A DNA stretch of 64,000 bases, from contig JAHAKU010000007.1 in the NCBI GenBank assembly GCA_018371535.1, positions 19,796 through 83,795 of the forward strand. The letters are read 5' to 3'. Source of the stretch: Campylobacter concisus (GTDB lineage Bacteria; Campylobacterota; Campylobacteria; Campylobacterales; Campylobacteraceae). The stretch's first letter is position 1. Each line of letters starts with the position of its first letter. The position numbers and the translations under genes are program-made. Positions 16,043-21,766 of the stretch are shown here, piece after piece. Under the pieces are notes generated by a model that worked only from the letters and a program-made list of their open reading frames with translations, was not told the origin of the DNA and made no database searches.

Positions 16043-16717
16043 ATGACTAAAGAAGCCCTTGAAGATTTTTGTGACGTCGTCGTAAAGCCAGTAGCTGACG
16101 GCGGCGAGGGCAGCGTGGAGGCTATGGCTGACGCGCTTGATGCTAAATTTATAGATACCATTGTAAAAAACCCACTTGGCACTGAAATTTTAGCTAGATA
16201 TGCTCTAAAAGACGACCTTGCCATACTTGAGATGTCAAGCGCTTCAGGACTTACTCTTATAAATCTTGATGAGAGAAATCCTATGAAAACTAGCACATTT
16301 GGCTTTGGTCAGATGATAAAAGATGCTATTAGTAAAGGAGCTAGGAAATTTATCATAGGTATTGGCGGAAGTGCGACAAATGACGCTGGCACAGGTATGC
16401 TAAGCGCTCTTGGCTTTAAATTTTATGACAAAAATGGCGCTTTGCTTGAGGGTAAAGGTGAGGATCTAGCTCAAATTTGCGAGTTTTCAGATGAAGAGGC
16501 TCTAAAAGAGCTAAAAGAGTGCGAATTCTTAATCGCCTGTGACGTGGATAATCCACTTTATGGACAAAAAGGCGCAGCCTACGTCTATGCCCCACAAAAG
16601 GGTGCAAATGGCCGCATGGTAAAGCAGCTTGATGACGGACTAAAGCACTTTGCGGGGCTTGTAAAAGAGAGATGGCAAGCAAATTTTACTCTGCTCGCCA
16701 AATTTATATCAAACTAG
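16043..16717 (+). pseudogene. truncated duplicate of an internal glycerate kinase segment (residues ~24-230 of the full gene at 20636..21766)
   Basis: about 98 % amino-acid identity over ~207 residues with the full-length gene; different N- and C-termini (MTKEAL… / …ERWQANFTLLAKFISN). Confidence 0.6.
16050..16670. repeat. left copy of a ~620-bp inverted repeat (glycerate kinase internal fragment)
   Basis: near-identical to 21077..21697 in opposite orientation; mirrored antisense ORFs 15913..16296/21450..21797 and 16416..16682/21091..21330 in the ORF track confirm nucleotide-level identity. Confidence 0.8.
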
Positions 16718-20635: not shown

Positions 20636-21766
20636 TTATGCTTTGCGGTTTAGCATATAAAGGCGGATGACTTGCTCGGCAGTCATCTTTAAATTTCTAA
20701 GGGCATTATCTTTTCGCATGGCTTCTTCAAGGCTCATTGGCTCATTTAGTATGCAAAAATAGGCATCAATGCCGTGTTTATGGCAGTCTTTGGCGCATCT
20801 TTGCACGCTTCCAGCAAGCGCGATGACTGGCTTATGATGCCTCTTAGCTAGCTTTGCCACACCTGTTGGGGTCTTGCCCATGGTGCTTTGAAAGTCCATG
20901 CGGCCCTCACCAGTGATGACAAGATCGGCCTTTTTGATCTCATCTTCAAGTGCGATGGTCTGCGTGATGATCTCGATGCCAGGCTTAAGCTTTGCGCCTA
21001 AAAATGCCACAAAAGCAAAGCCAAGTCCGCCAGCTGCTCCAGCGCCCTTTTGCGTGTGAAATTTAGTGCCGTTTTTCTCTTTTACAAGGCTTGCAAAGTG
21101 CTTTAGTCCATCATCAAGCTGCTTTACCATGCGGCCATTTGCGCCCTTTTGTGGTGCATAGACGTATGCTGCGCCCTTTTGACCGTAAAGTGGATTATCC
21201 ACGTCACAGGCGATTAAAAATTCGCACTCTTTTAGCTCTTTTAGCGCCTCTTCATCTGAAAACTCGCAAATTTGAGCTAGATCTTCGCCTTTGCCCTCAA
21301 GCAAAGCGCCATTTTTATCATAAAATTTAAATCCAAGAGCGCTTAGCATACCTATCCCAGCGTCATTTGTCGCACTTCCGCCGATGCCTATGATAAATTT
21401 CCTAGCACCCTTGCTAATGGCATCTTTTATCATCTGACCAAAGCCAAATGTGCTAGTTTTCATAGGATTTCTCTCATCAGGATTTATAAGAGTAAGTCCT
21501 GAAGCGCTGGACATCTCAAGTATAGCAAGGTCGTCTTTTAGGGCATATCTAGCTAAAATTTCAGTGCCAAGCGGGTTTTTTACAATGGTATCTATAAATT
21601 TCGCATCAAGCGCGTCAGCCATAGCCTCCACGCTGCCCTCGCCGCCGTCAGCTACTGGCTTTACGACGACGTCACAAAAGTCTTCAAGGGCTTCTTTTAT
21701 AGCAAGGCCCGCCTCAAGCGAGCTTAGCGAGCCTTTTAATGAATCTATCGCAACCAAAATTCTCAT
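20636..21766 (-). CDS. glycerate kinase
   Basis: 376 aa; glycerate kinase family motifs; forms an operon with the upstream GntP-family permease. Confidence 0.85.
   Translation of the reverse strand: MRILVAIDSLKGSLSSLEAGLAIKEALEDFCDVVVKPVADGGEGSVEAMADALDAKFIDTIVKNPLGTEILARYALKDDLAILEMSSASGLTLINPDERNPMKTSTFGFGQMIKDAISKGARKFIIGIGGSATNDAGIGMLSALGFKFYDKNGALLEGKGEDLAQICEFSDEEALKELKECEFLIACDVDNPLYGQKGAAYVYAPQKGANGRMVKQLDDGLKHFASLVKEKNGTKFHTQKGAGAAGGLGFAFVAFLGAKLKPGIEIITQTIALEDEIKKADLVITGEGRMDFQSTMGKTPTGVAKLAKRHHKPVIALAGSVQRCAKDCHKHGIDAYFCILNEPMSLEEAMRKDNALRNLKMTAEQVIRLYMLNRKA
21077..21697. repeat. right copy of the ~620-bp inverted repeat (inside the intact glycerate kinase gene)
   Basis: see left copy 16050..16670. 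Confidence 0.8.

Follow-up and report, generated by a model that had tools for sequence, protein, structure and literature searches.

A probable pseudogene fragment of glycerate kinase forms a recombination-active inverted repeat with the glxK gene in Campylobacter concisus

The stretch analyzed here (hereafter the window) comprises 64,000 nucleotides of a Campylobacter concisus contig (JAHAKU010000007.1, positions 19,796 to 83,795; assembly GCA_018371535.1), and it carries the glycerate kinase gene glxK together with an inverted partial copy of this gene on the other side of a molybdopterin oxidoreductase locus. An inverted-repeat search of the window yielded one ungapped pair of arms, 622 nt each and 4405 nt apart, which is the sole inverted repeat of at least 60 nt within the 64 kb. 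Arm A (16049-16670, plus strand; "allele alpha") is the fragment copy, and arm B (21076-21697, minus strand; "allele beta") corresponds to codons 24-230 of glxK. The arms differ by 32 mismatches, 29 of them in third codon positions, which fall in 31 codons (28 synonymous and 3 non-synonymous changes) and leave 204 of the 207 encoded residues identical. An earlier note on this DNA had described an inverted repeat of ~620 bp, composed of a stand-alone plus-sense fragment with its own ATG and a minus-sense copy inside an intact glycerate kinase gene. Our self-comparison recovered both copies, the first as a 224-aa open reading frame (ORF; 16043-16717) and the second within a 376-aa gene, while the identity of about 98% given there holds for the protein (98.6%) but not for the DNA (94.9%).

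The intact glxK gene (20636-21766, minus strand) scores 457 bits against TIGR00045, whose cut-off is 168, and matches PF02595 over its full length. Its start overlaps by 4 nt the stop of a gene called for a GntP-family permease (21763-23157, minus strand; 464 aa in related contigs), which lies upstream of glxK on the outer flank of arm B, and the two genes are probably co-transcribed. The segment between the arms contains, as previously described, a ttrA-like gene, a ttrB-like gene and the 3' part of glxK, namely its last 146 codons. The first of these (16714-19704, minus strand) encodes a 996-aa molybdopterin oxidoreductase that we call TtrA-like rather than a TtrA equivalog because its NF011567 score is 956 bits, against a cut-off of 1750. 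The gene for the TtrB-like 4Fe-4S subunit (19718-20449, minus strand), delimited by gene call and by comparison with orthologues, is a pseudogene, which the earlier note overlooked: relative to the intact 245-aa orthologues it has lost 5 nt (CTATG) and 1 nt, neither in a homopolymer, and the same lesions are present in L001, a nearly identical metagenome contig. No ttrC-like membrane subunit gene adjoins the ttr-like genes in the window. As the ttrB-like gene is pseudogenized, the molybdoenzyme is probably non-functional in the window strain.

The 224-aa fragment ORF (MTKEAL...ERWQANFTLLAKFISN; plus strand, gene call) is composed of MT, GlxK residues 24-230 and 15 final residues (RWQANFTLLAKFISN) that are the reverse-complement translation of the terminator hairpin of the ttrA-like gene (16700-16673). 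This terminator-like hairpin (16673-16700, minus strand; 11-bp stem) immediately adjoins arm A on its right and is conserved whether or not a strain has the fragment. Given so strong a hairpin between ttrA and the fragment, read-through from ttrA producing an antisense RNA against glxK, which we considered, is unlikely. The fragment covers profile positions 29-236 of 372 and falls short of the full-length domain (PF02595 / TIGR00045) by which members of the glycerate kinase family are recognized. On the left, arm A is preceded by a junction block, AAATTTATCAAATTTAGCTCTAAGTTTATGACT (16013-16048, plus strand), common to all fragment-bearing strains, which forms an imperfect hairpin and contains the ATG at 16043. 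The apparently "intergenic" DNA further left is the remnant of a gene for a XerH-like tyrosine recombinase, of which the last 41 codons and the stop persist (15885-16010, plus strand): in a tblastn search of the window with the 353-aa orthologue (ORF L036:15762-16823, minus strand), residues 313-353 matched at 85%. This 353-aa protein matches PF18644 and PF00589, and XerC/XerD-type models score below their cut-offs. L036 and many other strains have the XerH-like gene complete (353 aa) at this position, and in many others a deletion has left only the same stump.

For the comparisons that follow, we used 58 species-representative loci (one genome per GTDB species) and ~45 metagenome contigs of the same locus, the latter gathered by exact-protein look-up, and typed all loci by BLAST with 14 features of the window; the same searches assign the window to Campylobacter concisus. 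Both junctions of the fragment recur. The right one (...AAAGAGA followed by TGGCAAGC, directly at the ttrA terminator) is common to all fragment-bearing loci, and so is the left block, AAATTTATCAAATTT(A/G)GCT...TTTAT, the same junction being seen in the window, L012, L023, L030 and L036. Because both junctions are shared by all fragment-bearing loci, the sequences indicate that the fragment arose once. The window has a short form of it; in a long form (L068, L069, L071 and L087) 40 nt more of glxK are present, to about codon 10, and in L068/L087 the left junction reads ATACCC/ATGCCC and the start codon is absent. Beyond the long form there is no significant homology to the start of glxK or the end of gntP (local alignment score 10, shuffle mean 7.9, p = 0.12), and we therefore dropped the tblastn impression ("residues 2-42") that the original duplicate included the 5' end of glxK. 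The ORF is intact in the window type, L023 and L036. Elsewhere it is frameshifted by a 1-nt deletion (L012), carries internal deletions (L030), is reduced to a strongly diverged stump with 56% aa identity (L066), or shows a 10-aa deletion or variant tails (P0022, P0053 and P0054; the deletion in P0053 and P0054). A ~1-kb "insertion" in the L023 fragment, first taken for a candidate mobile element, is a run of N at a scaffold gap. Near the fragment in the window, we found neither a transposase nor an intact recombinase.

Exchange of sequence between the two copies by recombination is well documented, since the two alleles of the window stand in swapped positions in L157. Both copies of that locus are resolved: its gene carries alpha, with 6/622 mismatches to the fragment of the window, and its fragment carries beta, with 3/622 mismatches to the gene of the window. 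The fragment allele of the window, alpha, is likewise found as a full-length glxK allele, P0128, in 9 contigs; there are two alpha sub-haplotypes, each found in fragment and gene positions, and the only consistent difference between fragment-position and gene-position copies of the alpha family, compared across contigs, lies in the last 3 sites, 14-17 nt away from the right boundary. The fragment of L012 is nearest to its own gene copy (2.7%, versus a mean of 6.4% to other gene copies), with which it shares an identical run of 230 nt. The contig L001 corresponds to window positions 10636-31766 reversed. Over these 21,131 nt it departs from the window only at six consecutive discriminating sites in the fragment copy (16144-16266), each of which carries the base of the gene copy; this is possibly a recent gene-conversion tract of 123-260 nt, or an assembly path switch. 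The contigs of the metagenome-assembled genome JAHAKV01 end at the repeat and overlap there exactly over 99 nt on either side, which implies that its two copies match perfectly over 99 nt or more at each end; in some strains the copies may be near-identical. The contig ends of L005 and L006 were also considered as possible evidence of identical arms and rejected, since in each the gene copy differs from the fragment copy: L005 has 6 differing sites in the last 123 nt, and L006 has 22 in 353 nt. For L005 alone, the position of the contig end makes identity further left plausible. The locus presents two marks of a RecA-type invertible segment, namely long, highly similar inverted repeats flanking a unique segment, and recombination between the arms, visible as conversion tracts and shared or swapped alleles.

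A crossover between the arms would invert the segment and create two hybrid genes, so the predicted proteins of the flipped isomer were searched by exact sequence among ~15 billion proteins. Three of 25 predicted hybrids are on record in public assemblies: two variants of a 245-aa product (GlxK residues 1-23, the repeat and RWQANFTLLAKFISN) and one product of 355 aa, in which MT precedes residues 24-376 of allele P0128. The remaining 22 guessed hybrids are not. Both inversion products that had been predicted from the window, a GlxK with the alternative ending ...ERWQANFTLLAKFISN and an MTKEAL... fusion to the true C-terminal part, thus exist in the databases. At the DNA level, the contigs encoding these proteins show the recombinant junctions expected of the flipped isomer: three (L149, 2105 nt; L150, 1052 nt; L151, 796 nt) read gntP, glxK 5' end, repeat, terminator and ttrA 3' end, with gntP and ttrA convergent, and a fourth (L161, 4939 nt) reads cgpA-like gene end, spacer, repeat, glxK 3' part, ttrB and ttrA. 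These four recombinant-junction contigs were assembled from four different samples by at least three pipelines. Their repeat is pure alpha, the allele family found in both positions, and they may be chimeras because alpha in both arms, or a mix of a strain with alpha in its fragment and one with alpha in its gene, gives the same de Bruijn graph for either orientation. A comparison of their flanks was uninformative as to a single-strain source, no available contig matching these flanks exactly. We consider the odds about even that real inverted isomers are present in the four samples. Among standard contigs, every fragment copy with both flanks resolved (~20) has the standard spacer-repeat-terminator linkage, and all 10 contigs spanning both copies have the orientation of the window; these 10 include each species-representative isolate genome with a resolved arrangement. 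The flipped state was found in no isolate genome among the species-representative genomes examined.

The consequences of such an inversion can be anticipated from the conservation of GlxK. A comparison of 12 Campylobacter homologues shows a high density of invariant residues in its first 23 and last 146 positions, the N-terminal part containing the DSxKGS block. As these invariant-rich parts would be lost, the 245-aa truncation and the 355-aa fusion should both be inactive, and the inversion would amount to a glxK knockout. The ttrBA operon would keep its own upstream region, located inside the segment.

Our reading of the locus, to which we assign a probability of about 0.7, takes the plus-strand copy for a pseudogene fragment that makes up, with glxK, a recombination-active inverted repeat. 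An internal piece of glxK (originally about codons 10-230) would have been inserted once, in inverted orientation, between the XerH-like gene and the ttrA terminator, in one C. concisus genomospecies already carrying ttrBA. Since its insertion the fragment would have evolved as a pseudogene, acquiring frameshifts and deletions or being lost altogether in many lineages, and repeated exchange with functional glxK alleles would have kept it gene-like, either through RecA-type conversion or crossover with the resident gene or through recombination with imported glxK DNA in this naturally recombining species. The 622-nt repeat would also serve as a substrate for homologous inversion of the 4.4-kb ttrAB/glxK-3' segment, splitting glxK into two inactive products; it is plausible that such inversion is to be expected mechanistically, especially where the arms have been homogenized. 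The exchange would then presumably depend on RecA, the flipped state would occur in cells, and no programmed role would attach to it.

Among the rival explanations, the one that survives best is that the 4.4-kb flip constitutes a RecA-dependent, reversible ON/OFF switch (phase variation) of glycerate kinase, the fragment being kept since heterogeneity is useful. The genus offers a precedent in C. jejuni and C. coli, where tlp genes with conserved halves flank an invertible element of ~92 kb (PMC6433261). Both predicted junction products are present in public assemblies, from four samples and at least three pipelines, as a switch would predict; however, the four junction contigs are short (0.8-4.9 kb), metagenomic and limited to the one allele family known from both positions, which is the condition for chimeras. 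Likewise, the swapped alleles of the window and L157 are what two successive crossovers would give, but they could also result from conversion combined with inter-strain recombination. The 22 further guessed hybrids are absent, and the ~20 flank-resolved fragment copies, 10 of them on contigs spanning both copies, keep the standard linkage. Furthermore, a switch should be conserved across strains, and of 48 species-representative genomes ~40 lack the fragment, several of the remainder having a degraded copy. Nor does the locus resemble a site-specific inverton, with short repeats and a dedicated invertase: the repeat is 622 nt of coding sequence, the neighboring recombinase is the 41-codon remnant, and L036, with an intact XerH-like recombinase, has the same orientation as the window. 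Since an invertase is lacking, strains do not consistently keep the fragment, some copies have decayed and the flipped state would be a glxK null, we see no indication of a selected switch, and consider this explanation unlikely. The earlier note had proposed a recA-dependent invertible switch as one of two options, which is only half supported: exchange between the copies is well documented, but the junctions are seen only on possibly chimeric short metagenome contigs, no isolate genome is flipped, most strains have lost the fragment or carry a decayed one, and both products should be dead enzymes. The repeat is a substrate for recombination, and a switch is at most a conjecture. A variant, in which strains with homogenized arms flip the 4.4-kb segment at appreciable frequency, giving a heritable, reversible switch of glxK, a central-metabolism gene, by general recombination and not by an invertase in an oral and gut Campylobacter, and in which the fragment doubles as an allele archive re-seeding the gene, seems to us improbable to a similar degree.

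The gene-like look of the fragment raises a second alternative, namely that the 224-aa ORF is a functional truncated glycerate-kinase-domain protein under purifying selection. An open frame with its own ATG, 98.6% identity to GlxK, 28 synonymous versus 3 non-synonymous differences and an identical sequence in nine contigs could all be taken in this sense. Nevertheless, the sharing of alleles with the functional gene accounts for the synonymous bias. At 29 of the 32 sites where the arms differ, the base of the fragment also segregates among functional glxK alleles of other strains, and the window fragment, which differs by 5.1% from its own gene copy, is no nearer to it than to the gene copies of other strains (mean 6.1%). 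Because the fragment bases segregate among functional alleles, the bias represents standing allelic polymorphism and not purifying selection, and selection on the fragment is not needed to explain its look. Fragment variants absent from 77 compared gene copies (5 non-synonymous, 3 synonymous and 1 frameshift, in 7 lineages) are few, look neutral and are unbiased by codon position; one fragment-private variant, L96, was afterwards found in the gene-copy allele P0128. In addition, the long form has no ATG, L012, L030, L066 and P0053/54 have broken or shortened frames, the C-terminal 15 residues are a translated terminator hairpin, no promoter-like site was found upstream, and the ORF is devoid of the invariant N-terminal DSxKGS block and of the whole C-terminal third. 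A functional truncated protein is therefore very improbable.

The other option of the earlier note was that an insertion or rearrangement delivered the ttrA/ttrB-like genes and left the duplicated fragment as its scar. In agreement with it, the fragment directly adjoins the ttrA terminator and is seen only in ttr-positive genomes. However, three main states occur between the cgpA-like gene, to the left of the XerH-like remnant, and glxK: ttrBA with the fragment, ttrBA without it, and neither. In the near genomospecies (GlxK 97-99% identical to that of the window), the fragment is present in 8 of 18 ttr-positive genomes, leaving 10 without it, and in 0 of 11 ttr-negative ones; in the other genomospecies (~90% GlxK identity), with 12 ttr-positive and 5 ttr-negative genomes, it is present in 0 of 17. 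The ttrBA genes are thus found at the identical site without the fragment in ~22 species-representative genomes, which is the arrangement that the earlier note itself had named as telling against the scar. Moreover, the ttr-less strains of the near genomospecies retain the last ~85 nt of ttrA beside the ttrA terminator, so that even the "empty" sites keep a ttrA 3' end, and fragment-free strains have, at the position of the fragment, ~200 nt of ordinary spacer common to ttr-less strains. Because of this retained 3' end, the ttr-less strains are deletion derivatives, and the ttrBA-like genes are ancestral at the site, their absence being secondary. As ttrBA occurs at the same site without the fragment and the ttr-less strains are deletions, the fragment is not a scar of ttr acquisition; it arose after ttrBA, in a genome already carrying these genes. 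We hold the scar explanation to be highly unlikely.

Finally, an assembly artefact, in which the two-copy repeat would stem from a wrongly joined or duplicated piece of contig in the source assembly, can practically be dismissed, since, although repeats this long do confuse short-read assemblers and the contigs L058, L061, L063, L067 and L068 end at the repeat, nothing specific speaks for it, the arms differ at 32 sites and have unique flanks on each, and the same arrangement with distinguishable copies recurs in more than 15 independent assemblies, among complete and draft isolate genomes and many metagenome contigs.

Several points weigh against a pseudogene fragment without a role. No transposase, target duplication or significant flanking homology was found that would account for its insertion. 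The fragment ORF is 100% identical at the aa level in 9 contigs from different samples, which may hint at constraint, these contigs being a biased sample found by exact-protein look-up. The four recombinant-junction contigs make up a sizeable share of the ~22 alpha-allele contigs, suggesting that flipping is possibly common. Lastly, the restriction of the fragment to ttr-positive strains (8/18 versus 0/11; Fisher p roughly 0.01, by our estimate and not from a computed test) would not be predicted for a purely inert relic.

The ttr-negative strains are independent deletion derivatives (L011, L014 and L015 at ~11234-11339; L054 and L057 at ~11234-11265) and fall into two classes, one retaining the last ~85 nt of ttrA and the other larger, ending at AATTT(A/G)GC direct repeats. 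Two chromosome-sized records, L011 (CP147773.1) and L012 (CP147775.1), are both named C. concisus RMIT-O23 and differ at this locus, one being without ttr or fragment and the other having ttrBA and the frameshifted fragment; it seems that two distinct genomes were deposited with this one name.

Concerning the surroundings, the cgpA-like/AMIN protein gene (14944-15831, plus strand; gene call) contains a tandem 30-nt direct repeat (15293-15352, 87% identical) encoding a repeated KVSTPV(I/A)(I/M)EK peptide, and its product varies in size among strains (286-296 aa). The recA gene (12304-13401; Pfam RecA matches on the orthologous gene) lies 2.6 kb upstream of the locus. Far to the right, a 116-nt sequence is present in three direct copies (47982-48097, 48393-48508 and 49827-49942; 67-91% identity to the reference copy), and no tRNA genes lie in that region (47982-49942). 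The convergent genes and the XerH-like gene made us consider the locus as a replication terminus, which was rejected, as the GC skew follows the local gene strand and shows no clear switch. A literature search for C. concisus and glycerate kinase returned nothing relevant.

If our reading is correct, a dead fragment can stay gene-like over the long term through recombination with the live copy, and such fragments can mislead calls of "functional ORF" based on dN/dS. The fragment would also be a built-in fragile site, at which inversion is able to knock out a metabolic gene, and inverted repeats of 600 nt would yield ambiguous or chimeric contigs in metagenome assemblies. Within C. concisus, the interval between the cgpA-like gene and glxK is variable, with ttrBA present, deleted or, as in the window, pseudogenized, the XerH-like gene present or deleted, and the fragment present or absent; it could be used as a strain marker.

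Compared with known systems, the locus reveals no new kind of system. In the pilE/pilS system of Neisseria, promoterless partial copies exchange with an expressed copy in a RecA-dependent manner, and alleles move between silent and expressed positions. The glxK fragment is similarly a partial copy trading alleles with an expressed gene. However, systems of this type have many cassettes and diversify surface antigens under diversifying selection, whereas here a single fragment derives from the gene of a metabolic enzyme, exchange involves almost exclusively synonymous differences, and we see no evident benefit. Within the genus, the rearrangements associated with Mu-like prophages in C. jejuni are reportedly inversions by homologous recombination between inverted prophage copies. 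That case (PMC1950947) is likewise an intragenomic rearrangement in Campylobacter. Unlike the glxK locus, it reportedly involves mobile-element repeats, very large inversions and a phage-resistance phenotype. Invertons, including intragenic ones, rely on short inverted repeats (~11 nt in the example that was mutated) and site-specific invertases (10.1101/2023.03.11.532203). As in the intragenic cases, inversion at glxK would recode or truncate a protein-coding gene; in contrast to them (10.1101/2023.03.11.532203), the repeat consists of ordinary coding sequence, 622 nt long, and the sole neighboring recombinase gene is reduced to 41 codons.

The closest known case is the invertible element of C. 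jejuni and C. coli, which is bounded by Group A tlp (chemoreceptor) genes, measures ~92 kb and has both boundary genes intact and functional; its opposite orientations were found in different isolates and validated by PCR (PMC6433261). Both loci belong to the same genus, in both the repeats are coding parts of paralogous genes of several hundred nt or more, and in both a crossover swaps gene halves through a proposed homologous recombination without a dedicated invertase (PMC6433261). Nevertheless, in contrast to the tlp element (PMC6433261), the glxK segment measures 4.4 kb, one of its arms is a dead internal fragment, no flipped isolate is known, and its inversion would destroy the gene.

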